Source: Trichormus sp. ATA11-4-KO1
GTDB taxonomy: Bacteria > Cyanobacteriota > Cyanobacteriia > Cyanobacteriales > Nostocaceae
Assembly: GCA_019358915.1 (NCBI GenBank)
Contig: JAHHIM010000030.1
Location: 1 to 54,127, forward strand
Direction: 5' to 3'
DNA: 54,127 nt
Shown: positions 19,772 through 48,916 of the stretch, in pieces
How positions within the stretch are numbered: position 1 is the first letter of the stretch
Layout: every line of letters starts with the position of its first letter
The notes under the pieces: model-generated
Database searches by the model: none
What the model was told of the DNA's origin: nothing
Seen by the model: the letters and a program-made list of their open reading frames with translations, nothing else
Made by a program: the position numbers and the translations under genes

Positions 19772-21268
19772 CTATCTGACTGAAAATGCTTCACTAAATC
19801 TCCGAGTTACAGGCTCAATAATGAAAGTCAAAATTGACTTCTTCCGAGTGACAATTTCACCATTAGCTGCCATTCCGGGAGTAAATGCAACTTCTTGTCC
19901 CCGCACATTCATGGAATGTTGACTCAACTGAATTCTGGTAGGAAAAACTAAACCCAATTCTTGATCAACAACTGCATTAGGACTAACTTGTACAACTTCA
20001 CCAGCAATAGTGCCAAATTCCTGGAAGGGGAAAGTTGCCATTTTCACCTTTGCTTTCATACCCTGACGAATAAAGCCAATATCGCGGTTGAGGACTTTGA
20101 CTTCTAACAACATCTCTTCTCCAGCCGGCAAAATTGACAGTAACTCTTCACCGGCTTGGACTGGGCCTTTGGTTGCTTTAATTTTGTAAATTGTCCCTGC
20201 TACTGGAGCCTTAATGGTTTCCCCTGCTTGCTGCTTTCTGGCCTGTTCTAATTGACCATTAATGTTAGTCAATTCTTCTTTACGCTGATTTATCTGGGTC
20301 AAAATTTCACTTTGGCGCTCAGACGTTAAACGCTGTGCTTGCTTAAGAACACCTTGATAGGCTTGTTCAGTTTGGCGGATTTCTTGGGTTTGGGCAGTAA
20401 TATCTCTTTCTAAGGAGGCTACTCTGTCTTGAGCCTCTGTTACTCGATTTTGAGCATTAATCACCTCATCTTTTGCCCTGGTGATGTCTGTGTTGGCTCG
20501 ATTTAATCTTTCTTGGGCTTCCAGGTAATCAAGTCTGGGTACTGCACCAGGACTGACAAGGGTGCGGAGATTTTCTTCTCGTTGTTGAGCGATCGCCATA
20601 TTGCTTTCAACTTTTTCGACGATGTTTTCGGCGTTGACTACATTTGTTTGGGCGTTAACGACACTGCTTTGAGCATTGACTAAATTTTCTTGTAACCGTT
20701 TGAGGCGGACTTTCGCCTGCTCAATAATTGCTAATTGGCGATTTGCTTCTGCTTCCGCCACAGCTTGACGAGCTTGGTAGTCTTTCAGCCGCGATGCCAA
20801 AAGTTCATCTTGCAGTTTTGTCCCAGCCGTTGTCGTACCGATGCGTTCTGCTTCTAAACGTTGCAAGTCTTCTTGAATCAACTTGGCAGATTGAGCTAGG
20901 CGGGTAACATCTGTTTGTTTCAAGTCTGGATCACGTTGAATTAGGACTTGATCCTTCGTGACGTGATCGCCTTCTTGGACATTCACTGCCAAAATTGAGC
21001 CACCACCCAAGGATGTTACCGGACGCACTTGTGTCGAGGCGATTAATTCCCCTGGGGCGATCGCGACTTCATCTATTTGAGAGAAATTTGCCCAGGCGAT
21101 CGCCCCAAATACTACTAAGCTCATCGTTCCCGCTAAAACTCTCGTATAAAGCGGTGGTAATTCCTGTACAGCTTTACCCACTTCATAAGATAGTTGGTCT
21201 TCTGGTTTAGCAAACTGCTGTTTTGTTTGACGTGCTTGAGCAGCATTGGCAACTAGGGAATATTTCAT
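19772..21268 (-). CDS. HlyD-family T1SS membrane fusion protein
   Basis: Single N-terminal TM, long coiled coil, IKAPVAG, DIGFI..G..FPFQEFG, PGMAANGEI. Confidence 0.93.
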   Translation of the reverse strand: MKYSLVANAAQARQTKQQFAKPEDQLSYEVGKAVQELPPLYTRVLAGTMSLVVFGAIAWANFSQIDEVAIAPGELIASTQVRPVTSLGGGSILAVNVQEGDHVTKDQVLIQRDPDLKQTDVTRLAQSAKLIQEDLQRLEAERIGTTTAGTKLQDELLASRLKDYQARQAVAEAEANRQLAIIEQAKVRLKRLQENLVNAQSSVVNAQTNVVNAENIVEKVESNMAIAQQREENLRTLVSPGAVPRLDYLEAQERLNRANTDITRAKDEVINAQNRVTEAQDRVASLERDITAQTQEIRQTEQAYQGVLKQAQRLTSERQSEILTQINQRKEELTNINGQLEQARKQQAGETIKAPVAGTIYKIKATKGPVQAGEELLSILPAGEEMLLEVKVLNRDIGFIRQGMKAKVKMATFPFQEFGTIAGEVVQVSPNAVVDQELGLVFPTRIQLSQHSMNVRGQEVAFTPGMAANGEIVTRKKSILTFIIEPVTRRFSEAFSVR

Positions 21269-31443: not shown

Positions 31444-33006
31444 ATGGATTTTGCTAATCTTGCATCCCAGTTAAATGCTGGAACGATTTTGCCAGAGGGA
31501 ATTGTAATTGTTACCCTCTTAGGGGTTTTGATTGTGGATTTGATTTTGGGGCGTACATCCTCACGTTGGATTGGATATCTGGCGATCGCAGGTTTACTGG
31601 CTGCGATTGGCGCCCTGTATTTTCAATGGGATGCTGTCAATCCCATCTCCTTTACCGGTAGCTTTATTGGTGACGACCTCAGTATAGTCTTTCGCGGGAT
31701 CGTGGCTTTGTCTGCGGTTGTGACTATATTGATGTCAATTCGCTATGTTGAGCAGAGTGGTACTGCTTTAGCAGAATTCATCGCGATTTTGCTAACTGCA
31801 ACCTTGGGAGGAATGTTCTTATCCGGGGCTAGTGAGTTAGTGATGATTTTCATCTCTCTAGAAACCCTCAGTATTTCCTCTTACTTACTCACAGGTTATA
31901 CCAAACGTGACCCCCGCTCTAACGAAGCAGCGCTGAAATACCTGTTGATTGGGGCCTCCAGTACGGCAATCTTTCTATACGGTGTTTCGCTGCTGTACGG
32001 TCTATCGGGTGGACAAACCGAACTAAATGCGATCGCCAATGGCATTGCCGCAGCTAACGTTGGTCAATCCTTGGGTTTGATCATTGCTCTCATTTTCGTG
32101 ATTGCAGGTATCGGTTTTAAAATTTCTGCTGCACCCTTCCACCAGTGGACACCAGATGTTTACGAAGGCGCTCCCACCCCAGTGATTGCCTTTTTATCTG
32201 TGGGTTCCAAAGCAGCTGGATTTGCCCTCGCTATTCGCTTACTAACAACAGCCTTCCCCCTCGTTGCGGAAGAGTGGAAGTTTGTCTTCACTGCCCTGGC
32301 CGTGCTCAGTATGATATTGGGTAACGTCGTCGCCCTTGCCCAAACTAGCATGAAACGGATGCTAGCTTATTCATCCATTGCTCAAGCTGGTTTTGTGATG
32401 ATTGGCTTGATTGCTGGTACTGAGGCCGGATACGCCAGTATGGTTTTTTACCTGATGGTTTACCTGTTCATGAATTTGTGTGGTTTTACCTGCATAATTC
32501 TGTTCTCCCTGCGAACGGGAACCGATCAGATTGCTGAATACTCTGGCTTGTACCAAAAAGACCCACTCCTGACACTGGGGTTGAGTATCTCCTTGCTGTC
32601 CTTGGGTGGTATTCCCCCACTCGCTGGGTTTTTTGGCAAAATTTACTTGTTCTGGGCTGGTTGGCAAGCTGGTCTTTACTGGTTAGTTTTGCTGGGCTTA
32701 ATTACCAGTGTAGTCTCCATCTACTACTACATTCGCGTAGTCAAGATGATGGTAGTCAAGGAACCCCAAGAAATGTCCGAAGTAGTGAAGAATTATCCGC
32801 AAGTGCGTTGGGATTTGCCTGGACTTAGACCTTTACAAGTAGGCTTGGTGGTAACTTTAATTGCCACTTCCATAGCTGGTATTTTGTCAAATCCCCTGTT
32901 TACGCTGGCGAATAATTCTATCTCTCGTACCCCAATGCTTCAAGCAACAACTGTTGATAGAACTCAAGTAAGTGCAATTTCCACAGAACAAGCCAAAGAG
33001 TTGTAA
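31444..33006 (+). CDS. ndhB: NAD(P)H-quinone oxidoreductase subunit 2 (NDH-1 chain N)
   Basis: [50 protein letters not shown]. Confidence 0.97.
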
Positions 33007-33066
33007 ATTGTACTTTTTTTAGCTCATCACTGATGCCATAGGGGTGCAAGGAATTGCACCCCTACT

Positions 33067-33159
33067 CACAGGAATCTTTATTACAAATTTTGCACCTTGG
33101 CCAAAATTAGAAAAGTAACTAAGTTGTCCCCCATGCTTTTCAACGATAATCTGATAGCT
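33067..33159 (-). pseudogene. Remnant of a histidine kinase C-terminus (end of HATPase_c)
   Basis: SYQIIVEKHGGQLSYFSNFGQGAKFVIKIPV matches the ends of the two neighbouring kinases (e.g. [31 protein letters not shown]). Confidence 0.75.
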
Positions 33160-33287
33160 GACAAAATGGTTCCATTGCGATCGCGCCATCGTTTCAGGTT
33201 GCTCGCAAGCTATCTTAACCAAATACAGTGCTAGTTGAGGGGAAAACCTGGGGATGTCTGGTCTAAACTGTCCTGCTCATTATCCGT

Positions 33288-33336
33288 GTTGGGTTATACC
33301 TACAGCAGGCTACGCGAACACGTTGCTCAACCCAAC
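33288..33336. repeat. REP-like palindrome with an internal short repeat
   Basis: GTTGGGTT ... AACCCAAC enclosing CCTACAGCAGGCTACGC. Confidence 0.5.
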
Positions 33337-33397
33337 TACATTTCTTGTTAACTGAAGTGTATCGGAATATAAATATATTTATTTGTAAATTATTCTG

Positions 33398-34702
33398 CTA
33401 ACGAATGGGAATAGTGATTACAAACTCCGAACCTTGTCCTGGTGATGAATTTACTTCTAAAGTTCCCTGGTGTTTTTCTATAATAATTTGACGGACGATT
33501 GATAATCCTAAGCCAGTACCTTGACCTACAGGTTTAGTTGTGAATAAATGCTCAAAGATTTTCTGCTGAATATCTGGCGACATTCCCACCCCATTATCCT
33601 TAATCCGAATCAAAACATGATTTTGATCTTCAGTTAGCCTAGTTTGGATAGTAATTTGATTGGGATTGGCTTCAATATCGCTATAGCTAAGCCCTAGATT
33701 AGATTCCTCTAAAGCGTCAATAGCATTAGCTAAAAGATTCATAAAAACTTGATTCATTTGACCGCTAAAGCATTTGACTTCTGGCAAATCATCGTAATCT
33801 CTGATTACTTCAATATCAGGACGACCTTCTGATAATTTTAAGCGGTGTTTGAGAATCAGGATTGTACTATCAATGCCATCATGAATATTACAGGAAACTT
33901 TGCGATCACTATCTTCTCGAGAAAAGGTTCGTAAACTGGTGCTGATGTTGCGAATACGCTGAACCCCCTCTTTCATAGAGCAAATTAAGTTAGGTAAATC
34001 AGCACGCACATAATCTAGGTCTATGGCTGCAATTTTTTCTTGAATTTCTGTAATTGGTTGAGGATAATGCTGCTGATAAAGGTCAATCAAATTAATCATG
34101 TCTTGAAAATATACCGAAGCATGACCGAGATTGCCATAAATGCAACCAACTGGATTATTAATTTCATGAGCAATCCCCGCTACTAATTGACCAAGAGCAG
34201 ACATTTTTTCCCTCTGTACAAGTTGCAGTTGAGATTCTTGTAAGTCTTTTAATGCTTGGGAAAGTGCTGCTGTTCTTTCTGATACTCGTTGTTCTAAATT
34301 TTTTGTAAAATTTCGTAATTCTAAATGAGTGTGGATTCTCGCTAATACTTCCTCCTCATGAAAGGGTTTAATTATGTAGTCAACAGCCCCTAAACCTAAA
34401 CCTTTAACTTTAGTATTTGTATCAGAAATTGCCGTCATAAAAATTATAGGTATATCACGAGTCTGCACATTTTCTTTCAATTTTTCACAAGTAGTAAACC
34501 CATCTATTTTAGGCATCATTACATCTAATAAAATCAAATCAGGCAGTCTATTTTCTACCTGCTGAAGTGCCATTTCTCCATCAATAGCGGTAGCAACCTC
34601 AAAACCTGCATCAGTTAAAAGCTTATAAATGACTCCTAAATTTGTCTGAGTATCATCCACGACTAAAATTAAGCATTTTTCTGGCATGGTAGACATTTTC
34701 AT
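33398..34702 (-). CDS. Hybrid REC-histidine kinase (receiver + HisKA + HATPase_c), cytoplasmic
   Basis: [50 protein letters not shown]. Confidence 0.93.
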   Translation of the reverse strand: MKMSTMPEKCLILVVDDTQTNLGVIYKLLTDAGFEVATAIDGEMALQQVENRLPDLILLDVMMPKIDGFTTCEKLKENVQTRDIPIIFMTAISDTNTKVKGLGLGAVDYIIKPFHEEEVLARIHTHLELRNFTKNLEQRVSERTAALSQALKDLQESQLQLVQREKMSALGQLVAGIAHEINNPVGCIYGNLGHASVYFQDMINLIDLYQQHYPQPITEIQEKIAAIDLDYVRADLPNLICSMKEGVQRIRNISTSLRTFSREDSDRKVSCNIHDGIDSTILILKHRLKLSEGRPDIEVIRDYDDLPEVKCFSGQMNQVFMNLLANAIDALEESNLGLSYSDIEANPNQITIQTRLTEDQNHVLIRIKDNGVGMSPDIQQKIFEHLFTTKPVGQGTGLGLSIVRQIIIEKHQGTLEVNSSPGQGSEFVITIPIR

Positions 34703-35630
34703 TCTTTGGTTTTTAGAGATTTTATAATTAAGGCAAATAAGTTAGCATTTACTCGTTTAGAAGGTGGGGTTATACCGTATGAAGCCATAATTATCGACAC
34801 TTTATTTCAGGTTTTAGTGCGACAAGTCAGGAAAAACCCTCTGCTATTCCTCAAATAGAGGAGTTTGGACGCTAAGATTCATTTTGCGATCGCTGCCCCT
34901 TATTCATCAGTTTTCCCAAAAATGTATCGACTTTTACTATCGCTATAGAATTGCAGTTGTATAAATTCGCAGTGACACAGAGCTTTACAGAATATCTTTG
35001 TTCATTCGCTGAGTCAGAGAACTCCAAGCATCGCGCTCATTTTAATTTTTCTAGTTTGTCATCCCTAATTTAAGTAATACTAGTATATGAATAAAATTTG
35101 CTACTCATTATTGAAAATACTTTGTATGTAATTTCTACTAGATAAAAATATTGTGGTAAAAAATTTTTCAGTATATTTTATTTATTTAGTAGTAAGAGTA
35201 AGGTAAATAGCTTACTTATATAGATTTTATCAGCGTGGGATAATTACGTAAAATTACTTGATAGCCTACTTGATAAATTACATCTAGACATAAAAACAAA
35301 TTCTTAAATTTACAGAAAATTACGGATATCATTTTTCATGAAAAATTAAACAATGGTGACATAGGTTTAGTTTGGGAAATATTGATCATAATTTAAAGTT
35401 GCCATCAGTAGTAATGCAGATATAATTTGCAAACTAAAAAATTTCTAATGAAGAAATTGAACATATCTAGCCAGTCTCAGAGGATATTTCCAAACTTTTG
35501 GGCGAATATATCTGTATTGCTGAATTAATTTGCCTTAGTTGTTTATTTTAATAGTAATTAAACTTTTATAAACAGCAAGATTGATAGCAAATTTTACAAA
35601 TTTTAAGTATTGAATCAGGAGGTATTAATA

Positions 35631-36338
35631 ATGAAACAAGTTATTAAATTTATTGAAAACAAAAAGCAAGAGTTTGCTGATTTGCCGCTATTTGAGTTCA
35701 TGCGAGACAAAAGCATCGACCCCAGACAAAGACTATCTTGGGCTTCCTATGCTGCTCCTTTTATTATGAATTTTGGAGAAATGAACAAATATGTTTTCCG
35801 AGATGAACCAACCAGCGATCCTATTCAGGCAATTATTAATAAACATTCTTATGAAGATGATCATCATTGGTTGTGGTTTCTAGAAGATTTCAAACACTTG
35901 GGTATTGACCAATCATTAAAACTTAGTGAAGCATTGAGATTTCTTTGGGGTGAAGAGACAGAAATTTCTCGATGGTTAGTATATCAACTTTACAAATATA
36001 TTTTACAAGCTGATTCTCTACAAAAATTAATAGTCATTGAGGTGATTGAAGCAACTGGAAACGTTATGTTTTCAGTTGCAGCAGACATTGGCAAAGAAAT
36101 GAAGGCAATTACTCAAAAAGAATTTTTGTATTTTGCCAATTTTCATTTAAATGTAGAAACTGGACACACAACAGGTTCACCTGGAATAGAGGAATTTATC
36201 CAAGAAATTCAACTAACAGAAAAAACTCGCCAAGAAGCGTTTGAAATAGTTGAGCAGGTATTTGATGTTTTTACAAAATTTACACATGAACTTTTGGTTC
36301 ATGCAAAAAAAAGCAAAATCGAGCAAGTCAAGTATTGA
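35631..36338 (+). CDS. Heme-oxygenase-like diiron oxidase (HDO), AetD-like; start moved to ATG 35631 (235 aa)
   Basis: AGGAGG RBS at 35617-35622; all-helical; D76-x2-H79 (EDDHHW), E140, H172-x3-E176-x2-H179; recalled end-to-end resemblance to AetD. Confidence 0.75.
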   Translation: MKQVIKFIENKKQEFADLPLFEFMRDKSIDPRQRLSWASYAAPFIMNFGEMNKYVFRDEPTSDPIQAIINKHSYEDDHHWLWFLEDFKHLGIDQSLKLSEALRFLWGEETEISRWLVYQLYKYILQADSLQKLIVIEVIEATGNVMFSVAADIGKEMKAITQKEFLYFANFHLNVETGHTTGSPGIEEFIQEIQLTEKTRQEAFEIVEQVFDVFTKFTHELLVHAKKSKIEQVKY

Positions 36339-36487
36339 AAGTTAGATAAATCAAGTTCTTAATTTAGCTAATTTTCATAACTATATAGTTTTTAAATCCT
36401 TGTATTTCTAGTTGTTTGGGAATATCAGGTAGATTGACAACATATAAGTTGTTCAAACTTAATCAACAGAATTGAAAAGGTAAAACC

Positions 36488-38077
36488 ATGAACATAGTAG
36501 CAGAGTTTGAATATTTAATTATTGGCGCTGGTCCTGCTGGATTGCAGCTAGGGTATTTTCTAGAAAAATCCAATTCTAATTACTTGATATTAGAAGCAGG
36601 TAATACGCCAGGAACTTACTTTAAAGATTTTCCTAGGCATAGGAAATTAATCTCAATTAATAAGGTTTATACAGGTTATGATAACCCAGAAATTAACCTC
36701 AGATGGGATTGGAATTCTTTACTGAGTGATAGTGAGGAAATGTTGTTTAAAAATTATAGTAGAGAGTATTTTCCTTGCACAGATGAACTCGTGAGATATC
36801 TCAATGATTTTGCTACATACTTTAATCTGAAAATTCAATATAATTGCCAAGTATCCAGGATTGCTAAAAGCGACAAATTCATGGTTATAGATAGCAATGG
36901 TAACGTTTATTCGGCAGATCGTTTAATCATAGCTACAGGTTTTTCTAAACTATATATTCCCCCAATTCCTGGTATAGAGTTGGCAGAAAAATATACTGAT
37001 GTTTCCATAAATCCAGAAGACTTTGCAAATCAAAAGGTATTAATTATCGGTAAAGGTAATTCTGGGTTTGAAACTGCTGATAATATAATTGGCACAGCAG
37101 CATTGATCCATATGGTTAGTGAAACTCCCATATCTATGGCATGGAAGACTAAGTATGTAGGACATCTAAGAGCAGTTAATAATAATTTTCTAGATACTTA
37201 TCAGCTAAAGTCACAAAATGGAATTTTGGACGCTAGTGTAACTCATATAAAACGACAAAACGGCAAATTTTTAGTATCTTTCTCTTATAAACATGCTAAT
37301 GGAGAACAAGAAGATATACTTTATGACCGCATAATTTTATGTACTGGATTTCGTTTTGAAGATTCTATGTTTGACGAGTCCTGTAAACCTGAGCTAACTA
37401 TTAATAACCGCTTCCCTAATCAAACCAGTGAATGGGAGTCAACCAACGTTAAAGATTTATATTTTGCTGGAGTCCTGATGCATATGCGGGATTATAAGAA
37501 GAAGCAATCTGGTTTTATACATGGATTTCGCTATAATATTCGAGCATTGCACAGCTTCTTAAAGCTTAAATACGATAATCAAGAGTTACCTTATGAGTCA
37601 ATTGCTCCCACTCCTGAAAGTTTAACAGAGACAATCTTCAAGCGGGTTAATATTAGTTCAGGATTATGGCAGCAAACAGGTTTTCTCTGTGACTTAATCG
37701 TTATCTCAGATGTCGAACAAGTAGCACGATACTATCAAGAACTACCTGTAGACTACATACATGACAGTAATAGTGACATTGACCACTACTACACAGTTTC
37801 TTTAGAATTTGGATATGAGGTTGAGAAAATGCCAGATCCTTTTGCCATCAACCGCGTCCATAAAGATGATACTAACAATGCTTCGCAAAGTGCTTTTATT
37901 CATCCCATCATTCGCCATTTCTCCGGTAACACACTGATTGCAGAACATCATGTCATTGAAGATTTAGCTGCTGAATGGGTAGAAGATGTCCACATTCAGC
38001 CATTACTGGAGTTTTTGCAAAATCAGCTATCAAGCAAAGTATCTCTGCCGAGATTAGCCTCATCAACTCCCCACTAA
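36488..38077 (+). CDS. FAD/NAD(P)-dependent oxidoreductase, FOXRED2-like
   Basis: GAGPAG and GKGNSG Rossmann motifs, IATG and LCTGF; FPRHRKLISINK and LRWDWNSLL recalled as a FOXRED2-family signature. Confidence 0.8.
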   Translation: MNIVAEFEYLIIGAGPAGLQLGYFLEKSNSNYLILEAGNTPGTYFKDFPRHRKLISINKVYTGYDNPEINLRWDWNSLLSDSEEMLFKNYSREYFPCTDELVRYLNDFATYFNLKIQYNCQVSRIAKSDKFMVIDSNGNVYSADRLIIATGFSKLYIPPIPGIELAEKYTDVSINPEDFANQKVLIIGKGNSGFETADNIIGTAALIHMVSETPISMAWKTKYVGHLRAVNNNFLDTYQLKSQNGILDASVTHIKRQNGKFLVSFSYKHANGEQEDILYDRIILCTGFRFEDSMFDESCKPELTINNRFPNQTSEWESTNVKDLYFAGVLMHMRDYKKKQSGFIHGFRYNIRALHSFLKLKYDNQELPYESIAPTPESLTETIFKRVNISSGLWQQTGFLCDLIVISDVEQVARYYQELPVDYIHDSNSDIDHYYTVSLEFGYEVEKMPDPFAINRVHKDDTNNASQSAFIHPIIRHFSGNTLIAEHHVIEDLAAEWVEDVHIQPLLEFLQNQLSSKVSLPRLASSTPH

Positions 38078-38083
38078 ATAGAT

Positions 38084-39628
38084 ATGGCAATTCAGCATAT
38101 TTGCATTATTGGTGCGGGGATTAGTGGTCTAGTCACAGCTAAGACATTTATTGAAGAAGGCTACGAAGTCACCGTGTTCGAGAAACAGAAAGGACTCGGT
38201 GGCGTGTGGGAAGGTTCTCGGACTTACGTAGGGTTAACCACCCAGAACCCTCGCGACACGTATGCTTTCTCCGATTATCCCATGCCTGCATCTTATCCAG
38301 AGTGGCCTACAGCTGAGCAGATGCGGAATTACTTGGAGTCTTATGCACAGCACTTTGGCATTGTCGAAAAGATTCGATTTCAAGCAGAAGTTACTCAACT
38401 AAAAAGAAAAACTGGGATACAACCAGGATGGATAGTTGGCGTTAAATCACAGGAAAATTGCCACAGTAAGACAAAACATGAGCAACACGAGTTTGATTTT
38501 GTTCTTGTGTGCAATGGTCTGTTTAATCTCCCCAAAACGCCTTTATTACCTGGTAAGGAGGATTTTATTGCATCTGGGGGTAAGGTGCTACATTCCACCG
38601 AGTTTAATGATAGTTCCCTACTAAAAGATCAGCGGATAATTGTTGTAGGCTTTGGCAGGTCTGCAACTGACATAGCTAACTATGTTGTCCCTCTAGTCAA
38701 AGAATGCACTCTTGTTTTTCGTCACACCTTGTGGAAATTTCCGAAATTTTTCCTGGGTTTGGTCAATCTGAAGTATGTTCTTTTAACCCGCTTTGCAGAG
38801 GCTTGGTTGCCTTACCGTCAACTGCGAGGGATGGAGTGGGTACTACATACTTTAGGAAAACCCTTAGTGTGGGCTTTCTGGAAGACAAATGAAATTCTCC
38901 TGCGATTACAGTTCGGTCTTGATGCTTGTGGGATGTTGCCTGATAAACCCCTGTATAAATCGGTAAACTGTTCTAGCGCGATCGCTGCCACAAGTTTTTA
39001 TAAGTACTTGTCCTCTGGCAAACTCAAGGCCAAAAAAACAGCGATCGCTCGGTTTGTCACCAATGGAGTAGAACTAGACAATGGTGAGCAGTTGCACGCA
39101 GACATAGTTATTTTTGGGACAGGATTTCGCCAGGATGTCCCCTTTCTCGAAGAAAAGTATCGTCAAATGCTGATCGATGACCAAGGCTATTTCCACCTAT
39201 ATCGCAATCTGATTCACCCTGATATTCCGGAAATAGGCTTTGTAGGCTATAACTCTAGTTTCTTTTGCCAATTAACCTCTGAGGTGGGAGCATGGTGGCT
39301 AGCAGAGTATGTCAAAGGTAATTTGGTTTTACCCTCACACACCGAAATGATCCAGGATATGGATGCGGAGTTCCACTGGCGGCAGACTAAGTTGCCGCCA
39401 GGTGGAGGTAGTGGGGGATGTATATCTCCATTTAACTTTCATCACCTCGAACAACTGATGCAAGATATGGGAGTGAGGCATCACCAGAAAGGCTGGCAGC
39501 GAGTTGCAGAAGTAATGATGCCAGTCAATCCATCCGCCTATAAACACATCCGACAACAATTGCGAGGAAAAAGGCTTCCATCTGCAAATAATTCTGAGAC
39601 AGTTAAAAGTTTAAAAGTAAATTACTAA
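38084..39628 (+). CDS. Flavin-containing monooxygenase (class B, FMO-like)
   Basis: GAGISG, FEK..LGGVW, GKVLHSTEF (FMO-type HS motif), GFGRSA, IFGTGF. Confidence 0.9.
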   Translation: MAIQHICIIGAGISGLVTAKTFIEEGYEVTVFEKQKGLGGVWEGSRTYVGLTTQNPRDTYAFSDYPMPASYPEWPTAEQMRNYLESYAQHFGIVEKIRFQAEVTQLKRKTGIQPGWIVGVKSQENCHSKTKHEQHEFDFVLVCNGLFNLPKTPLLPGKEDFIASGGKVLHSTEFNDSSLLKDQRIIVVGFGRSATDIANYVVPLVKECTLVFRHTLWKFPKFFLGLVNLKYVLLTRFAEAWLPYRQLRGMEWVLHTLGKPLVWAFWKTNEILLRLQFGLDACGMLPDKPLYKSVNCSSAIAATSFYKYLSSGKLKAKKTAIARFVTNGVELDNGEQLHADIVIFGTGFRQDVPFLEEKYRQMLIDDQGYFHLYRNLIHPDIPEIGFVGYNSSFFCQLTSEVGAWWLAEYVKGNLVLPSHTEMIQDMDAEFHWRQTKLPPGGGSGGCISPFNFHHLEQLMQDMGVRHHQKGWQRVAEVMMPVNPSAYKHIRQQLRGKRLPSANNSETVKSLKVNY

Positions 39629-39685
39629 TTGAGCAGGAGATGATTGCAGTTACACTCATCTCTTTAATCTATAACTTTCTCATTG

Positions 39686-39715
39686 AGCAACCGCATTTCA
39701 CGGTTGCTTATTTTC
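39686..39715. terminator. Probable (bidirectional) terminator between the oxidase operon and the giant kinase
   Basis: AGCAACCG-7 nt-CGGTTGCT between convergent genes. Confidence 0.6.
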
Positions 39716-39719
39716 ATAA

Positions 39720-42700
39720 CTATTGAATTGGTATTTCAATCACAAACTCAGAACCTTTATCTACCTCAGAATTACAAGTTAACTTACCCTTGTGTTTGTC
39801 CACGATAATCTGATAACTAATTGACAAACCCAATCCTGTACCACTGCCTACTGGCTTCGTGGTAAAAAATGGGTCAAATATTTTTTGCCGTACAGATGCT
39901 GTCATCCCTAGACCGTTATCAGCCAACCGAATCCTGAGTATATTTAAGTCTACTATTTCAGTACAAATGCGAATTGTGGGAGTGTTAGTTGTTTGATCAC
40001 TAACCTGTAAATCCTCCAAAGCATCAATTGCATTACTGAGGATATTCATAAATACTTGATTGAGTTGACTAGCGTAACAAGTAACTTCCGGTACGTGTCC
40101 GTATTCTTTGATGATTTCAATTTCACGGCGATTTTGATCTCCACATCGTTTTGCCTCTGTGCTATTTTTCTTAAGTCGATGCTGCAAAATCATCAAAGTG
40201 TTGTCTAATCCTTCATGAATATCTACAGGTTTCATTTCGGCTTCATCCAAACGGGAGAAGTTACGTAAGCCCAAAATAATGTTTCGGATACGCGAACTTC
40301 CGACTTTCATAGAATCTATAGTTTTTGGCAAGTCTGTCGCTAGAAAATCTACATCAATTTCTTCAGCTTTCTCTTTAACTATAGGGGAAGGAAGAGGATA
40401 CTCTTGTTGATAAATAGCAATCAACTCCAGCAAATCTTTAACATATTCACTAGTATGAGCAATATTACCGTGAATAAAGTTAATAGGGTTATTGATTTCA
40501 TGAGCAATTCCCGCCACCATTTGACCCAAAGAAGACATTTTTTCACTTTGAATTAATTGGGTTTGAGTGCGTTGTAATTCGTGTAGAGCTTGTTGTAAAG
40601 TTTGATTTTTTTCGTTGAGTTCTGCTGTTCTTGCAACGACTTTTTCCTCTAATGTGTGGTTATATTCCTCCAATTTCTTATTAGCTTGTGCCAGATTAGT
40701 GTATAGCATAGCATTCTCTAGTGAGATTGCAGCTTGAGTAGTTAGAAGTTTGAGGAGTTCTAGGCGATCGCGTGTAAATGCTCCCGTAGTCAGATTATTT
40801 TCTAGGTAAAGAATGCCAAGTAACTTACTTTGATTAATCATCGGAATACACAATAAACTCTTTGGTTCTTCACGGGTAATGTAAATATCTGCCGCTAAGG
40901 AAGCTTGAGCTTTTGCATCATCAATAACTAATATCTCTCGCGTACGTTTGACATAATTAATTAAGGAAATAGGAACATCATAGCTGGACTCTAGGCGAAT
41001 TGATGTAAATTCTGTGTAGGTAGGAGTAAATGTTGAACTGGCGCTAACTGCGGTAACATTTAAGTTCAATTCATCGCTTTCGCTCAAAATTAGCACACAT
41101 TTAGAAGCTCCCACATTCTCCATTACAACTTCCATCAAAGTAGAAAGAAGTTCCTGCAACTCAATTTCCCCAGAAAGTGCTTGAGAAGCTTTAATCACAG
41201 CTGCTAAGTCCAGCATATCTGACATACTGGTATTAGAGCCAATCACAGTTTCATTAGTACTCAAAATGGATTGAGTACTAGGCGTAGATCGAGTTAAACT
41301 AAGTTCAGAAGTGCTTCTCTCACTGGAATTCAAGCTAAGTTTTTCTTGTTGAATAATAGAGCTAAGTAATTGAGGATAGCGTTTTTGCAAGTCATTAACC
41401 TTTGCTAATGCACCCCAACGCACATATCCATAGTAGGCATCAATGAGGTAGGTTTGGGCAATCTTCTGCTTGCCCCATTCTAAATAAAATTTACTAGCAA
41501 GTTCATGAGCTAGAGCTTCTTCATGGATATACTCATGTTCTTTAGCGAGAGAAATGGCATAATCATAATATTTCATTGCCTCTAGATATTGGTCTAAAAC
41601 TCGATATTTTTCAGCTTTTACTAAATAAAATTTATGTAAATGATTTATCGGCATATGATCTGCCCATTTACGTATTTTTTCCTGATTAGCTAGCACTTTA
41701 GTCAAGATTTCTGCTTGTTGAGAGAAATCAACATCATCATATGTTGCTAGCAATGCGAGGGAACTGTAAAAATATAATTGAGGAACCACGAATTGTCCGG
41801 CGGTACTGAGTAAATACTGTTCTGCTCTTACAGCATTTTCAATTGCTTCAGGGTAATTAGCAAAGAGATAACACAGATGAAGCTTACACAAATAAACATA
41901 TAAAATAGAAATTCCATCATTAGCTTTTATCTGAACTGGCAGAATTTTTGTCTCATCATAAGCTTCACCAATCAAATAACAAGGATTTTGCACATCACCT
42001 ATGAGATTTAATACTGTCTGTCGATAAATCTCAATCCAGTAAAAGACTCCATTTTGTTGGAGTTGGCTGGCCGCATAACTATAGTTTGCCATCTCCCGCT
42101 CAAGTCCTGTCAGTTCCTTACCACTAAAGTAGGAAATGTAGCAGTATGAATATAAAGAATAACCAGCAAATTCTAAATCTCCTGTTTCTAATCCAGCAGA
42201 ATAAGCTTCTAACAGAGGCTGGAAAACTTCCTTGACTGGTTCCTTCCAATGCCTAACATGGGCATTAAATGTTTGGATAACTTTAGCTTTAATTTCTTTA
42301 ACATTGAACCGTGATAATAGACTTGTAGCTAATTTGCCAAACTGATAACCAAGTTCAATATCTTCCAAAGGCCCACACAGCATTAAACCATAAGCAACAT
42401 AAACAAAAGCCGACAAAGGAGAATTGCCATATTTGAGCGATAAGTTGATTTGTTTAACAATAATTAGCGGAAATACTTCAGGAACAGCTTGACAGGCAAG
42501 AGCCATGGCACTGGATAAAATACGCATTACTGCCAGTGCTTCTGGTTGTGTCATCTCTGGTAAATCAATTAGTTCCTCAATACTGCGATTAGCGAGAATT
42601 GAAGCTGTGATTTCCATTTCTTTTTGCACATCAGCTTGGTTAGGATGCTCTGGGAATTCCACCCCTAACAACTTTAAAAAAGCTAGTGCAGCCTTGACAG

Positions 42701-45365
42701 CTTCTTGTGCTTTGCCCTGCGCCCCGTATGCTTGAATTGTCACCTCATAAACTTTTACTTTCTCCAGCAGTGTTTTAGCCTTTGCCAACACAACTTGAAC
42801 AAGTCGCTTTGTCTGCTCAAATTCACCATTCAGATATGCAGCTTCTGCCGCAGTTTCATACAAAGCAAGAGTTAGCTCATATTTAATATCCCAACTATTA
42901 CTTGCCAGCAGTTCAATTCCAGTAGTTAAATATTTCATTGCAGCTGAATAAGCTGTTGATGTCATAGCTTTATGACCAGCAATCAGGTTCATTGCAGCTA
43001 GTTCATCTCGTTTAGCTTGATTAGTAATGAATTCCACTGCAATATTGAACTGATTAACCAGTTCAAAAATCTTTTCTTCCCGTTCTTCAACAGGAATATT
43101 CTTCAATAGAAGTAGCCCAATTTTTAAGTGAATTGGTTTTTTTTGCTCTGTAGGAATCAAAGTATAAGCAGCTTGTTGTACACGGTCATGTACAAATTTA
43201 TACTTAATTAATTGATAATTAGTCGTTAATAATTTGTGCGATTCTTCGCGATTGGTCATGACCTGTTGTTCACTATTATCTTCTGGCAAAAAATTATAGC
43301 CCTCATTTTGAGGTAAAACTAATCCATCAAGCAAGGCTGGCCATAGGTCTGCTGCTGTATCTACTGCACTTTTTTCATTAATGATAGCAAGAGTTTTTAG
43401 GTCAAATTCATTACCAACACAAGCTGCAAGTTTCAACAATTTGTGAGTATTCTTTGGCAGCTTTTCTATTTGAATTGCCATGAATTCTACTACATCATCT
43501 GTGAGAGATAATGCTTTAATTTTTTTTATGTCATATTGCCAGTGACCAACATCAAAATTTAATAGAATTAGTCCATCATCATATAAAGACTTAAGAAATT
43601 GAGTCACAAAGAAGGGGTTACCTTTAGTTTTCGCAAACACCATTTGTGTTAAAGGAACAGCAACTACTTCAGGACAATGAAGGGTATCAGCAATCAAATG
43701 GTTTAAATCAGACTGATTTAAGGGTAAAAGATTGATGATATGAATAGCTGCACCCAGTTTGGCAATTTCGTGCAGTGTCAAATTCAATGGATGTGCATTT
43801 GAAACTTCATTATCTCTATATGCACCAATCAGTAGTAAACTACCCTTATCCTCAGCTAACTTATGTATTTCACCTGTAAGACTAGAAGAGGTAGCCTCAC
43901 TCATTAATAATTGGATAAATTTCAAAGAAACCGTATCTGCCCATTGTAAATCATCCAAAAAAATTACCAGAGGATGCTCTTTAGTTGTAAAAACTTGAAT
44001 AAATTTTTGGAACAATAAATTGAAACGATTGTAAGCGGCACTACCAGAAAGTTCTACAACTGGAGATTGCTTACCAATAATCCGTTCAAGTTCGGGAATT
44101 ACATCAGTAATTATCTGACCTTGTGTACCCAATACCAATAAAATCTTTTCTTTCCATTGGAGAATTTGGGCATCATTTTCTGAGAGTATTTGCCCAACTA
44201 AATCCCGAAAAGCTTGTACAAATCCTGATAAGGGGATATCACGTTGGAACTGATCAAATTTCCCTTTGATAAAGTAACTACGCTGCCGCAAAATTGGTTT
44301 ATGAACTTCGTTAACCACAGCAGTTTTGCCAATTCCAGAGAACCCCGTAACTAATATTATTTCAGTTGTCCCATGTGTCACGCGGTCAAAGGTAGCGAGT
44401 AGAGTTTCAACTTCACTTTGACGACCATAAAGTTTTTCGGGAATGACAAAACGATTGGAGATATCTCGACTTTTCAACTCAAAATGTGCAATATTTCCTT
44501 TTTCTTGCCATTGGTTTCGGCACATTTCCAAGTCATACTTGAGTCCGTATGCACTTTGATAGCGATCTTCGGCATTTTTTGCCATCAGTTTGCTGATAAT
44601 CTCAGATAAGATCGGAGGAATATTGGCATTAACCCGATTGACTTTTGGTGGCTCTTTGGCAATATGAGAGTACACTAACTCCATTGGTTCAGTACTATTG
44701 AAAGGTAACTGTCCGGTGAGAAGTTCAAAGAAGGTAACACCCAAAGAATAAAAGTCAGTGCGGTAGTCAATTCCTCGATTCATCCGTCCCGTTTGTTCGG
44801 GAGAAATATAAGCTAAAGTGCCTTCTAAAACATTGGGATTTGAGAGAACTTGAATTTCTTTTGGTAAGAGGGTAGCAAGACTAAAGTCGATAAGTTTAAT
44901 CTCATATGTGGTGGGGTGAATGAGAATGTTGGCGGGTTTGATGTCTTTGTGAATGATGCGATGGCGGTGCAGTTCTTCAAGAGTGGAGGCAACTTCAATG
45001 GCAATGTGGAAAAACTTACTCAAAGAAACAGCACTTTGCTCCAACTCTGGCTCTTTTCGTTGCCACTCTTTGAGGGATATCCCACCAAAATCTTCCATCA
45101 CTAGGACATAGCCGTTGCGGTGATTTTCTAAGCTATGGGGTTTAATTATCCCAGGGATTTCGAGGTTTTGAGTTATGGTGTATTGATTACGGAACTGAGA
45201 AATTTCAGCAAAGGTAGGATATTCATTCCGCATCAGTTTGAGAATGACAGGTTTTTGATCTTGCTCTCTGATGCCCCGATAAACTAGGGTTTTACTACCT
45301 GAATAAATTTGCTCAGTAATGCGATAGCCAATTATAGGATATACAGTATCTAATACTATTAACAT
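39720..45365 (-). CDS. Multidomain Ser/Thr kinase - AAA ATPase - GAF - histidine kinase (HstK-type)
   Basis: [62 protein letters not shown]. Confidence 0.95.
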
Positions 45366-45931: not shown

Positions 45932-46561
45932 CTACTTGAATTTTTGTTTAATAAATGTCACTACCTGAGCTAGCTGTTTCTTCAAGCCATCAATTTCTGC
46001 TTGCATTTTGACAATTTTTTCATTCAGCGCATTTACTTCTGCTGAAGCAGCTACTTCAGCTTCAGAGGTTACTACGGTAGTATTTGCAATAGTAGAAGTT
46101 GCTGCCGTGCCATTTTTAAGGGCAATGGTTGCTACTGTACCATTTGTTGCAACAGCTGCTACTGGAACTAGCTCTGGGCGAGGCTGTTTCGCCTTAGCCA
46201 TCGCTGACTTAATCGCATTAATCAGTTGTTTCTGGTCAAAAGGCTTTCCCAGAAATTCAAAATATTCAAAAGGTTCAGGGATTTTCTCCGTCACCTCCTC
46301 CTTGCGACCAGACATGATCACTAAAGGAATCTTCCTTAACTCAGGCTGCGCTTGAACTTGCTGGAAAACTTCCCAGCCGCTCATTTTAGGCAAGAGAAAA
46401 TCCAACATGATCAAGCTGAGTTTTTCCTGACGGATGAAATTGAATCCTTCTAAACCATCTTTGGCTTCTAATACCTCGAAATTGCCCGGAGGCAGCATTT
46501 CTCGTACTTTTACCCTGACAACTGTAGTGTCATCGATAACTAAAATTTTGTTACTTGCCAC
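45932..46561 (-). CDS. Response regulator: receiver + low-complexity linker + C-terminal coiled coil
   Basis: LVIDD, MLDFLLP, GKPF; no DNA-binding domain recognised. Confidence 0.88.
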   Translation of the reverse strand: MASNKILVIDDTTVVRVKVREMLPPGNFEVLEAKDGLEGFNFIRQEKLSLIMLDFLLPKMSGWEVFQQVQAQPELRKIPLVIMSGRKEEVTEKIPEPFEYFEFLGKPFDQKQLINAIKSAMAKAKQPRPELVPVAAVATNGTVATIALKNGTAATSTIANTTVVTSEAEVAASAEVNALNEKIVKMQAEIDGLKKQLAQVVTFIKQKFK

Positions 46562-48049: not shown

Positions 48050-48916
48050 TCAAATCGTGCCTTTGAATAAACCTTTGGGGCGAATGAGCAGCACCAAAAT
48101 CATAATTAATAGCGCTATACCTTGTTTATATTGAGAACCTAACCAAAGAGTGCTGAGTTCTTGGGCAATACCAATGATAAAAGCGGCGGCGATCGCTCCA
48201 TAGGGGTTGCCGATACCACCCAAAATCACTGAGGCAAACAAGGGTAAAATTAAAAACCACCCCATGTTTGGGCGTACAGCTGTAATCAATCCGTACATAC
48301 TGCCACCCATAGACGTAAGTGTGCCAGCAATTAGCCAAGTCCAGAAAATTACTTGCTCTACATTGATGCCAGAAACTCTAGCTAAGTCTAGATCATCAGC
48401 AACTGCTCGCATAGCTTTACCAATTTTGGTGTTTTGTAGTAGGTAGTGCAAAGCTAAAATTGCCAATACTGCTAACCCTAGTACCAACAATTGATTTTGT
48501 GGTACTTTTAGACCGAAAATATCCCAAGCTGGGGTAACGGGTAAATTGTAATTTTGGTTTTGGCCGCCCCACAGGAAAATAATGCCGTTGCGGAGGAATA
48601 AAGCAAGTCCAATAGAAATAATAATTAGTGTTGTGGAAGTGGCACGAATAGAGCGCATCCTAGACCACAACAATTTTTCCGCAACCAGCATCACCGTTAC
48701 TGTTCCCGCCGCCGCCAGAATGATTGATAGCCAAATATTTATCCCAACAGTATTGACTAACAAAGTTAAGTAGGCTCCCAAAGTCAAAAAATCACCGTGG
48801 GCAAAATTTGACAACCGTAAAATCCCGTAGGTAAGAGTGAGTCCTACGGCTGCTAGAGCGATAATGCTGCCTACGGCAATTCCGTTGACGATCAGTTGAG
48901 CAAGTTGTGTATCCAT
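48050..48916 (-). CDS. natD: Branched-chain/neutral amino acid ABC transporter permease (LivH/NatD-like)
   Basis: GLTLTYGILRLSNFAHGD, GKAMRAVADD..ARVSGI, VILGGIG; the symbol is less certain than the family. Confidence 0.8.
   Translation of the reverse strand: MDTQLAQLIVNGIAVGSIIALAAVGLTLTYGILRLSNFAHGDFLTLGAYLTLLVNTVGINIWLSIILAAAGTVTVMLVAEKLLWSRMRSIRATSTTLIIISIGLALFLRNGIIFLWGGQNQNYNLPVTPAWDIFGLKVPQNQLLVLGLAVLAILALHYLLQNTKIGKAMRAVADDLDLARVSGINVEQVIFWTWLIAGTLTSMGGSMYGLITAVRPNMGWFLILPLFASVILGGIGNPYGAIAAAFIIGIAQELSTLWLGSQYKQGIALLIMILVLLIRPKGLFKGTI

Follow-up and report, generated by a model that had tools for sequence, protein, structure and literature searches.

One question raised by contig JAHHIM010000030.1 of Trichormus sp. 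ATA11-4-KO1 (assembly GCA_019358915.1) is what product is made, and by what chemistry, by a unit of three redox genes that stands in it. The window, by which is meant the whole stretch of 54,127 nt read on the forward strand, carries these genes co-directed on the + strand: open reading frame (ORF) 1 (35631..36338; 235 amino acids) encodes a heme-oxygenase-like diiron oxidase (HDO) of the AetD/SktA family, ORF2 (36488..38077; 529 amino acids) a FOXRED2-like FAD/NAD(P)H two-Rossmann flavoprotein of family PF13738 with an extra, putatively alpha/beta C-terminal domain, and ORF3 (38084..39628; 514 amino acids) a flavin-containing monooxygenase (FMO) of family PF00743 and of the SktC type. The genes are separated by 149 and 6 bp, just as an initial annotation had given them. 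The same annotation took the trio to be undescribed, which does not hold, because an AetD homologue, a flavin enzyme and an FMO have been published together as the skt cluster of Nostoc punctiforme NIES-2108, with the proteins SktA, SktB and SktC (Adak et al., JACS 2025, PMC11869266, cited throughout from excerpts of the paper). The trio is very probably a variant of the skt pathway, that is, a skt-type unit whose iron enzyme and FMO are of the SktA and SktC types. Clusters of this type, and the chemistry of their key enzyme, are already in print; the ORF2-type partner, its natural fusions to HDOs and the link to a giant kinase were not found in print. A paper on an ORF2-type flavoprotein as the partner of an HDO was not found among open-access PubMed Central papers and bioRxiv, and in excerpts of a 2026 review of HDOs (PMC13108848) the words 'fusion' and 'fused' are absent and a flavoprotein partner goes unmentioned.

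The skt cluster and the iron enzyme ORF1

SktA, which is 39% identical to AetD, converts 5-bromo-tryptophan, and plain tryptophan as well, into (bromo)skatole, cyanide and bicarbonate, and its assays used Fe(II) and ascorbate (PMC11869266). SktB is a flavin-dependent tryptophan 5-brominase that needs no separate reductase, and SktC is an FMO that was not obtained in soluble form and is proposed to oxidise the skatole ring (PMC11869266). The skt cluster and the trio have in common three co-directed genes in the order diiron HDO, flavoenzyme and FMO, a host of the Nostocales, and an FMO gene placed directly after the flavoenzyme gene (by 6 bp here), with the HDO and FMO of the skt cluster being homologous to ORF1 and ORF3. 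Neither unit includes a P450 or a tryptophanase, as the authors of PMC11869266 remark for the skt cluster. The difference lies in the middle gene, since SktB is a PF04820 tryptophan halogenase, whereas ORF2 belongs to PF13738 and is unrelated to SktB. The published Skt proteins were compared by eye only, with loci of the same architecture (L006, L007, L009 and L024-L028) serving as stand-ins; the middle genes of L006, L007 and L009 match PF04820 at E 1e-140 to 1e-149, and ORF2 does not. Several relatives also share the neighbourhood of the trio, consisting of ndhB, a response-regulator/kinase gene and a giant kinase gene.

No Pfam or NCBIfam family was matched by ORF1. The 'AetD-like' label of the initial annotation was nonetheless sound, as a phmmer comparison recovered the AetD chains in the PDB (8ji2, 8twn, 8tww) at E 3.4e-50 and 174 bits, aligning residues 1-230 of ORF1 gap-free to residues 11-240 of the AetD chain, and all six iron ligands of AetD (D76, H79, E140, H172, E176 and H179, as given in excerpts of PMC10654658), making up a set of three His and three carboxylates, are present in ORF1 at identical residue numbers. 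AetD is, however, more distant from ORF1 than the SktA-type proteins are. ORF1 is 64-70% identical to HDOs of loci with a tryptophan halogenase (the SktB type). Of 21 positions compared, lying in the substrate pocket or next to it, 19 have the same residue in ORF1 as in these HDOs; eight of the 21 have been named in papers (41, 44, 139, 142, 146, 167, 214 and 221) and the other 13 are neighbours added here. The two exceptions are position 139, which is I in ORF1 and T or L among the HDOs of tryptophan-halogenase-type loci, and position 210, which is V rather than L. Second-shell residues that separate SktA from AetD are T139, T142 and F214 in SktA (PMC13108848), against M139, A142 and S214 in AetD. 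ORF1, with I139, T142 and F214, has two of the three residues of SktA and departs from it at position 139, which may be poorly diagnostic for the SktA type. When ORF1 is set beside the printed SktA sequence, 49 of the first 71 residues agree, a count made by eye and not computed. On the strength of these sequence comparisons ORF1 is a probable skatole synthase of the SktA type.

AetD, which forms the nitrile in aetokthonotoxin biosynthesis, belongs to the same fold family as ORF1 and has the same ligand set. It acts together with a P450, a tryptophanase and the halogenases AetF/AetA, all of them missing beside ORF1, in agreement with the initial view that the locus is not the aet cluster. The product of AetD is a nitrile, whereas a skatole-type product is expected for ORF1. 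The route from a free amino acid that was first proposed for the trio can therefore be kept as far as free tryptophan as the substrate is concerned, but not in its outcome, because the known chemistry of SktA leads to skatole, cyanide and bicarbonate rather than to a nitrile or an oxime.

ORF3 matches PF00743 at E 5.2e-47 and has two glycine motifs, GAGISG and GFGRSA. It shares 56-77% of its residues with the FMOs of tryptophan-halogenase-type loci and 57-96% with the FMOs found beside ORF2-type genes, and its N-terminus resembles, by eye, that of SktC as printed in the supplement (excerpts of PMC11869266). ORF3 is classed on these resemblances as an SktC-type FMO. The same genome also holds a short second match to ORF1 (L002, G000:C15:23372-23512; 47% identity over residues 17-63, inside a frame of 107 amino acids) that may be the remnant of another HDO gene, and a paralogue of the giant kinase lies about 34 kb from it on the same contig.

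The middle slot and its occupants

The three genes do occur together elsewhere. The order HDO-ORF2-FMO is found as in the window in L003, L004, L005, L008, L010 and L042, so the arrangement is not a product of chance, and L013 has an HDO and an ORF2-type gene in a sequence that ends after the latter. A scan of the genome collection for HDO returned 19 loci, 15 of them cyanobacterial and four non-cyanobacterial, the four having none of the partners considered here. An HDO with a PF04820 halogenase and an FMO is found in L006, L007 and L009 of this collection and also in L024-L028; an HDO followed by a relative of CmlS-like halogenases, with no FMO, in five Microcoleus/Oscillatoriales loci of the collection; and an HDO, a CmlS-like halogenase relative and an FMO in L040 and L041. 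L014 carries an SDR, an HDO and an FMO. Because the X of HDO-X-FMO can be of the PF04820, ORF2 or CmlS-like type, three unrelated flavoenzymes share one slot, and two of the three belong to halogenase families. A true tryptophan halogenase is missing from the window's genome, where PF04820 has a single match, a partial one of 35 bits outside the trio, and the PF04820 model also gives matches in six of 14 control genomes. An esterase gene of the BD-FAE/alpha-beta-hydrolase type follows the FMO gene in L006 (12183-13061) and L010 (11891-13922), with an O-methyltransferase gene added in L010, which suggests tailoring pathways longer than the three-gene unit.

A sample of 401 genomes of the phylum, with thresholds of E 1e-10 or better for HDO and E 1e-40 or better for ORF2, contained an HDO relative in 47 genomes and an ORF2 relative in five, the window's genome included. 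Within this large cyanobacterial family only SktA and AetD have been characterised. The loci examined numbered 59 of 71 HDO places, the window, seven paralogues of genus g24 (36-37% identity) and four weak or fragmentary matches being left out. A tryptophan halogenase and an FMO lie near the HDO in five of the 59 loci, a CmlS-like flavoenzyme in 15 (two of them also with an FMO), an ORF2-type flavoprotein in three, and none of the three flavoenzymes in 36. Beside the window's own, three sampled genomes have an ORF2 relative of at least 66% identity, and in all three an HDO gene adjoins it: G242 has the gene order of the window, with the FMO, and in G278 and G268 ORF2 comes first and the HDO follows. 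In these loci the ORF2 relatives are 66-74% identical to ORF2, while the HDOs are only 36-49% identical to ORF1. An ORF2-type gene and an HDO gene, with no FMO, make up L053 and L081. G284 has an ORF2 relative of 40-42% identity and no HDO; its locus L083 (60-11717) places an ORF2 relative of 40% identity in a region of polyketide synthase (PKS) and nonribosomal peptide synthetase (NRPS) genes (KR-DH, ER-ACP, condensation domain), with a Na+/H+ exchanger gene next to it and a gene for a CmlA-like diiron beta-hydroxylase at a distance of 1.6 kb.

A quick maximum-likelihood tree of 88 HDO sequences (IQ-TREE, midpoint-rooted, with SH-aLRT support only) puts the window's HDO in a clade of five rows, all of them with ORF2 and FMO (SH-aLRT 96). 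This clade is sister (92) to a clade of eight rows with tryptophan halogenase and FMO (99), and the next outgroup consists of L010 and L013, both of the ORF2 type, and L014. HDOs that have ORF2 as a partner or in the same chain are spread among several deeper clades. Read most simply, the tree would mean that ORF2 is an old partner of the HDO family, and that an SktB-type halogenase replaced it in one lineage.

Nine natural HDO::ORF2 fusions of 833-912 amino acids are known from the searches (P0214, P0218, P0224, P0233, P0235-P0237, P0239 and P0241). The N-terminal part of eight of them is 45-54% identical to ORF1 and the part that follows 68-70% identical to ORF2. At the six iron-ligand positions a His or carboxylate is kept in seven of the eight fusions checked (P0241 lies outside this set), two of them with D for E176, and in P0233 H179 is replaced by N. 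About 100 residues are added to the fusions as a C-terminal tail; in the window the two proteins are encoded by separate genes 149 bp apart. Conserved adjacency and natural fusions together mark ORF2 as a dedicated partner of the iron-enzyme family, and we regard it as highly likely that ORF2 works with ORF1 in some way.

A metagenome scan provided 79 further loci of the ORF2 family, for which 93 of 114 nearest-neighbour ORFs were domain-scanned, HDO-like ORFs and most of the very short ones being left out. An HDO lies directly upstream of the ORF2 relative in eight of the 79 loci, namely in six of the 11 with at least 60% identity and in L115 and L160. An ORF2 relative without an HDO is seen in L142 (73%), L089, L091, L144 and L152, so adjacency is frequent and not obligatory. 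In L086 (5107-9275) an HDO gene, an ORF2-type gene (74% identical) and a gene of the indoleamine 2,3-dioxygenase (IDO) family (E 3e-112) follow ndhB on one strand, and this unit holds, in the IDO, a second tryptophan-oxidising iron enzyme. Other genes found beside ORF2-family genes include those for P450s (L095, L096, L108, L117), FMN_dh proteins (L092, L099, L102, L126) and Na+/H+ exchangers (L096, L122, L144), NRPS modules (L089, L091), a TauD-type gene (L143) and a MauG-like gene (L100); the ORF2 relatives in L092, L095, L096, L099, L102, L108, L117, L122, L126 and L144 are 45-60% identical to ORF2. The flavoprotein family thus clearly occurs in settings other than the HDO one. More distant relatives are fused to FAAL-ACP (P0242, 59% identical to ORF2, and P0247), and an IDO-like::ORF2-like fusion (P0249) and a Na+/H+ exchanger fusion (P0254) also occur.

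Outside the cyanobacteria, no member of the ORF2 family was found at E 1e-50 or better in 401 Pseudomonadota genomes (best three candidates per genome), and among the four non-cyanobacterial genomes with HDO relatives only G401 has an ORF2 relative. This is P0243/L084 (G401:C864, Silvanigrellales-like), a protein of about 790 amino acids whose C-terminal 510 residues are ORF2-like and whose N-terminal 270 residues matched neither the HDO profile nor any Pfam family. No characterised bacterial member of the ORF2 family was found by NCBIfam cut-offs or among open-access PubMed Central papers and bioRxiv.

Possible roles of ORF2

ORF2 matches all 305 profile positions of PF13738 (Pyr_redox_3; E 2.4e-52), has no PF04820 match, and carries its Rossmann motifs at residues 13-18 (GAGPAG, FAD) and 188-193 (GKGNSG, NAD(P)H), so that both flavoproteins of the trio have the two motifs ascribed to them at the outset. 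The name 'FOXRED2-like' also proved a fair lead, PF13738 being joined by an automatically named FOXRED2 cluster at rank 11 (score 0.98) of a feature search with ORF2, a result of use as a lead only. The family counts 598 clusters at E 1e-30 or better and extends to human FOXRED2, and its RWDWNS motif and C-terminal domain are kept down to 34% identity. A first model built from 30 close homologues had a pLDDT of 64 and uninformative Foldseek matches, and was replaced by an AF2 model built from 54 diverse relatives with a pLDDT of 92.8. The best structural match predicted from this second model, over ORF2 residues 4-363, is YpdA, the bacillithiol disulfide reductase Bdr (Z 32.4, root-mean-square deviation (rmsd) 2.5, 314 residues; Foldseek TM 0.84-0.85). 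The model further resembles the putative FMO 3d1c (Z 31.3), type II FMOs (Z 29-31; SMFMO 4a9w 30.6, 4usr 29.8, 4usq 29.3), amine N-hydroxylases (Z 25-28.5) and thioredoxin reductases (Z about 25), with TrxR-type ferredoxin reductases also among the matches; YpdA, SMFMO and 3d1c together span Z 30-32 and rmsd 2.5-3.0 over 314-345 aligned residues. YpdA and the type II FMOs are only about 20% identical to ORF2, which differs from them in having a further conserved domain towards its C-terminus (about 345-515, some 170 residues) with near-invariant D402, H472, P473 and H488. No curated NCBIfam model reaches its cut-off, and ORF2 stays far short of that of the YpdA model TIGR04018, with 85.6 bits against the 339.9 required.

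The reading that we tentatively put first is that free tryptophan is quite possibly halogenated or hydroxylated on its indole ring by ORF2 and only then cleaved by ORF1. As a class-B-type NAD(P)H/FAD flavoenzyme, ORF2 would do the job of SktB on free tryptophan by other means. In ORF1, as a substrate-triggered diiron oxidase, free L-tryptophan or its ring-substituted form would be held on Fe1 by its amino and carboxylate groups, and O2 would be used to break the bond between C-alpha and C-beta, the products being HCN, CO2 and either skatole or a substituted form of it, a chemistry that we infer from homology to SktA, the one enzyme where the cleavage was shown. ORF3 would oxidise the indole product further, which is a guess here as in published work. 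Tryptophan modification by ORF2 fits its equivalence of slot with two halogenase families, the lack of a tryptophan halogenase in the genome, an HDO pocket that is nearly unchanged, and the links to tryptophan chemistry in L086 (HDO-ORF2-IDO) and P0249. Given the Z scores of the type II FMOs and the amine N-hydroxylases, true monooxygenases dominate the predicted structural neighbours. The group B layout with two Rossmann motifs, seen in ORF2 in both motifs and in fold matches to FMOs and N-hydroxylases at Z 24-31, and the use of NADPH and FAD are shared with AetF and Bmp5, a comparison that the initial annotation had made, and AetF itself works alongside an enzyme of the AetD family, with free tryptophan as its substrate.

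Several observations weigh against this reading. No solved or characterised halogenase resembling ORF2 is among the matches listed, the single best structure being that of a reductase, YpdA. AetF is absent from the best 60 ORF2 profile matches and from the structure matches listed (50 per list); it has been assigned to the B2 FMOs (PMC10306068), whereas ORF2 is nearest to YpdA and the type II FMOs and not to the class of AetF. The catalytic Lys258 of AetF lies in an insertion of the NADP domain and faces the tunnel (PMC10306068), and in the ORF2 family K241, in a conserved segment some 50 residues beyond the NADPH motif, is near-invariant; as a counterpart of Lys258 it is only a lead. The contexts of the family, with Na+/H+ exchangers (three loci and one fusion), FAAL-ACP, P450s (four loci) and FMN_dh proteins (four loci), are ill-suited to a tryptophan halogenase. 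Because 36 of the 59 HDO loci lack the three flavoenzymes, the iron enzyme needs no such partner, and SktA takes unmodified tryptophan too (PMC11869266). Matching pocket residues, moreover, do not prove a substituted substrate.

Alternatively, and with somewhat more reserve, ORF2 may be an NAD(P)H reductase that returns diferric ORF1 to the diferrous state at each turnover, directly or by way of reduced flavin, in which case the pathway would begin with unmodified tryptophan and yield plain skatole, HCN and CO2. The rank of the NADPH-dependent reductase YpdA as top structure points in this direction, as do the matches to thioredoxin reductases and TrxR-type ferredoxin reductases. By an electron count made here, the conversion of tryptophan to skatole, HCN and CO2 gives two of the four electrons that O2 needs. 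The recurrent partners to which members of the family are fused or adjacent are iron oxygenases that require reduction (HDO, IDO, P450, and the TauD-type, MauG-like and CmlA-like proteins of L143, L100 and L083), and self-sufficient oxygenases have the iron domain N-terminal and the flavoprotein C-terminal, which is the arrangement of the HDO::ORF2 fusions. A generic role would also fit the retention of 66-74% identity in ORF2 where the HDO partner drops to 36-49%. For SktA, the assays were run with ascorbate and the excerpts of PMC11869266 name no natural reductant. A reductase, however, is hard to reconcile with the 36 of 59 HDO loci that have no flavoenzyme and the 20 that have a halogenase-type one instead, and would imply that enzymes with another function had taken over the slot of ORF2. 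ORF2 also has no ferredoxin-like or other electron-carrier domain, its score against the YpdA model is far from the cut-off, and it has A17 where the glycine-rich motif of YpdA carries a cysteine; the fusions to FAAL-ACP and the neighbouring NRPS genes are more suggestive of an oxidation of substrates. Either way, the ORF2 family is a candidate partner of the HDOs, as a third unrelated kind of tryptophan-modifying flavoenzyme or as the HDO's own reductase.

It is improbable that ORF2 acts after the HDO, oxidising skatole or disposing of cyanide or a carboxynitrile, so that two successive flavin monooxygenases would stand in one pathway. The closest true enzymes are indeed type II FMOs (4a9w, 4usr and 4usq), bacterial FMOs oxidise indole, fusions of consecutive pathway steps are common, and the esterase and O-methyltransferase genes after the FMO in L010 and L006 point to several oxidative tailoring steps. 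SktA, furthermore, releases cyanide (PMC11869266), which the cyanobacterium would have to handle. Set against this, a late-acting ORF2 leaves the halogenases in the same slot unexplained, L053 and L081 have ORF2 and HDO without any FMO, and no cyanide-handling family resembled ORF2 in the Pfam and NCBIfam scans. In the skt cluster only SktC is assigned a step after SktA, and a second such enzyme is not called for (excerpts of PMC11869266).

It is also improbable that a few second-shell changes have turned ORF1 away from skatole, for instance to a nitrile, an aldehyde or the outcome of another cleavage, which would be a so far undescribed product close to the initial proposal: AetD and SktA do differ in product while sharing ligands and having similar pockets, and position 139, at which ORF1 has I, SktA T and AetD M, is named as a differing site (both from excerpts of PMC13108848), and ORF1, judged by eye, shares only some two thirds of its residues with SktA, but the same position varies between T and L inside the tryptophan-halogenase clade with everything else compared unchanged, T142 and F214 are as in SktA, and the retention of an SktC-type FMO suggests the same kind of product.

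The giant kinase and the flanks of the trio

Convergent with the trio, on the - strand, lies the gene of a giant sensor kinase of 1881 amino acids (39720..45365; Pfam Pkinase, AAA_16, GAF, HisKA and HATPase_c). A relative of this kinase, matched in its N-terminal part, is found within the 7-kb flanks of the HDO in 29 of the 59 sampled loci, a proportion that overstates independence because many of the loci are closely related; the chance expectation is about 2%, or about one locus in 59, by arithmetic made here. By type of locus, the kinase is near 2 of 5 HDOs with a tryptophan halogenase, 12 of 15 with a CmlS-like flavoenzyme, 3 of 3 with ORF2, and 12 of 36 without a flavoenzyme, and it is present in 11 of the 15 cyanobacterial loci of the genome collection. 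The link spans four families, with HDOs 36-68% identical to ORF1, and takes three forms: the kinase gene is convergent and directly after the operon (in L043 the stop ends are 5 bp apart), divergent and upstream in Microcoleus-type loci, or co-directional and downstream in L058-L061. Relatives of the response-regulator/histidine-kinase gene on the other side of the trio follow the giant kinase gene in the Microcoleus-type loci L030-L039. The window's genome has six full-length kinase paralogues in 5.97 Mb, on contigs that include C4, C14, C15, C32 and C55; the closest, on C4, is 71% identical, with no HDO gene recorded nearby.

The recurrence of the kinase hints at a signalling role for the HDO loci, and cyanobacteria may form skatole or cyanide as part of a signalling circuit and not as ordinary secondary metabolism. 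Genomes with a trio-type cluster may produce skatole-type odorants and free cyanide. A wider scheme, which we consider unlikely as a whole, would make the FOXRED2-like flavoprotein the long-missing redox partner of HDOs and of IDO-like and P450 iron oxygenases, HDO and flavoprotein together a self-sufficient tryptophan-cleaving unit, and its volatile indole or cyanide product a possible signal tied to the giant kinases.

On its left the trio is flanked by topoisomerase I and ndhB genes and then by the divergent gene of a hybrid response regulator/histidine kinase of 434 amino acids (33398..34702, - strand; Pfam Response_reg and HATPase_c). Between the latter and ORF1 lies the AT-rich spacer that had been put at about 930 bp and that measures 928 bp (34703..35630), with a GC content of 0.26-0.35 in 400-bp windows. 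A sigma-70-like site in the spacer, TTGCCA-16-TATAAT at 35399-35426, agrees at 11 of 12 positions and is a weak mark, promoter-like sites in the region numbering 18 against 18.8 in shuffles. Rfam gave no family at threshold over 33000-40500, the sole match, to a snoRNA at 26.6 bits against 50, being taken as chance. The longest frame of ORF1 opens at TTG 35610; ATG 35631 is preferred, with a Shine-Dalgarno-like AGGAGG (35617..35622, + strand), read from the sequence, 8 nt 5' of it.

Between the convergent ORF3 and kinase genes a hairpin of 10 pairs, five of them G-C, is followed by a T-run (39684..39710, + strand). The terminator with which the initial annotation closed the operon thus has a structure to correspond to it, but terminator-like sites are no more numerous in the region than in shuffles (3 against 3.2), and the hairpin alone is weak evidence. 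Upstream of the kinase gene and on its strand is the gene of a response regulator of 209 amino acids (45932..46561, - strand; Response_reg, E 4e-17). As first stated, NRPS and PKS genes are lacking nearby, none being found within about 10 kb of the trio by a Pfam scan of ORFs of at least 150 amino acids, in which precursor peptides were not looked for. Transport-type genes of the stretch encode an HlyD-family protein (19772-21268) and a permease (48050-48916), the latter about 8.4 kb downstream of the trio.

The GC content of the trio steps up from 0.33 in the HDO gene and 0.36 in ORF2 to 0.44 in the FMO gene. Recent transfer was considered as the cause of the step between ORF2 and ORF3 and rejected: GC and third-position GC climb along the operon in all nine loci compared (the window and L003-L010), so the gradient is a trait of the family and not the mark of a recent transfer.

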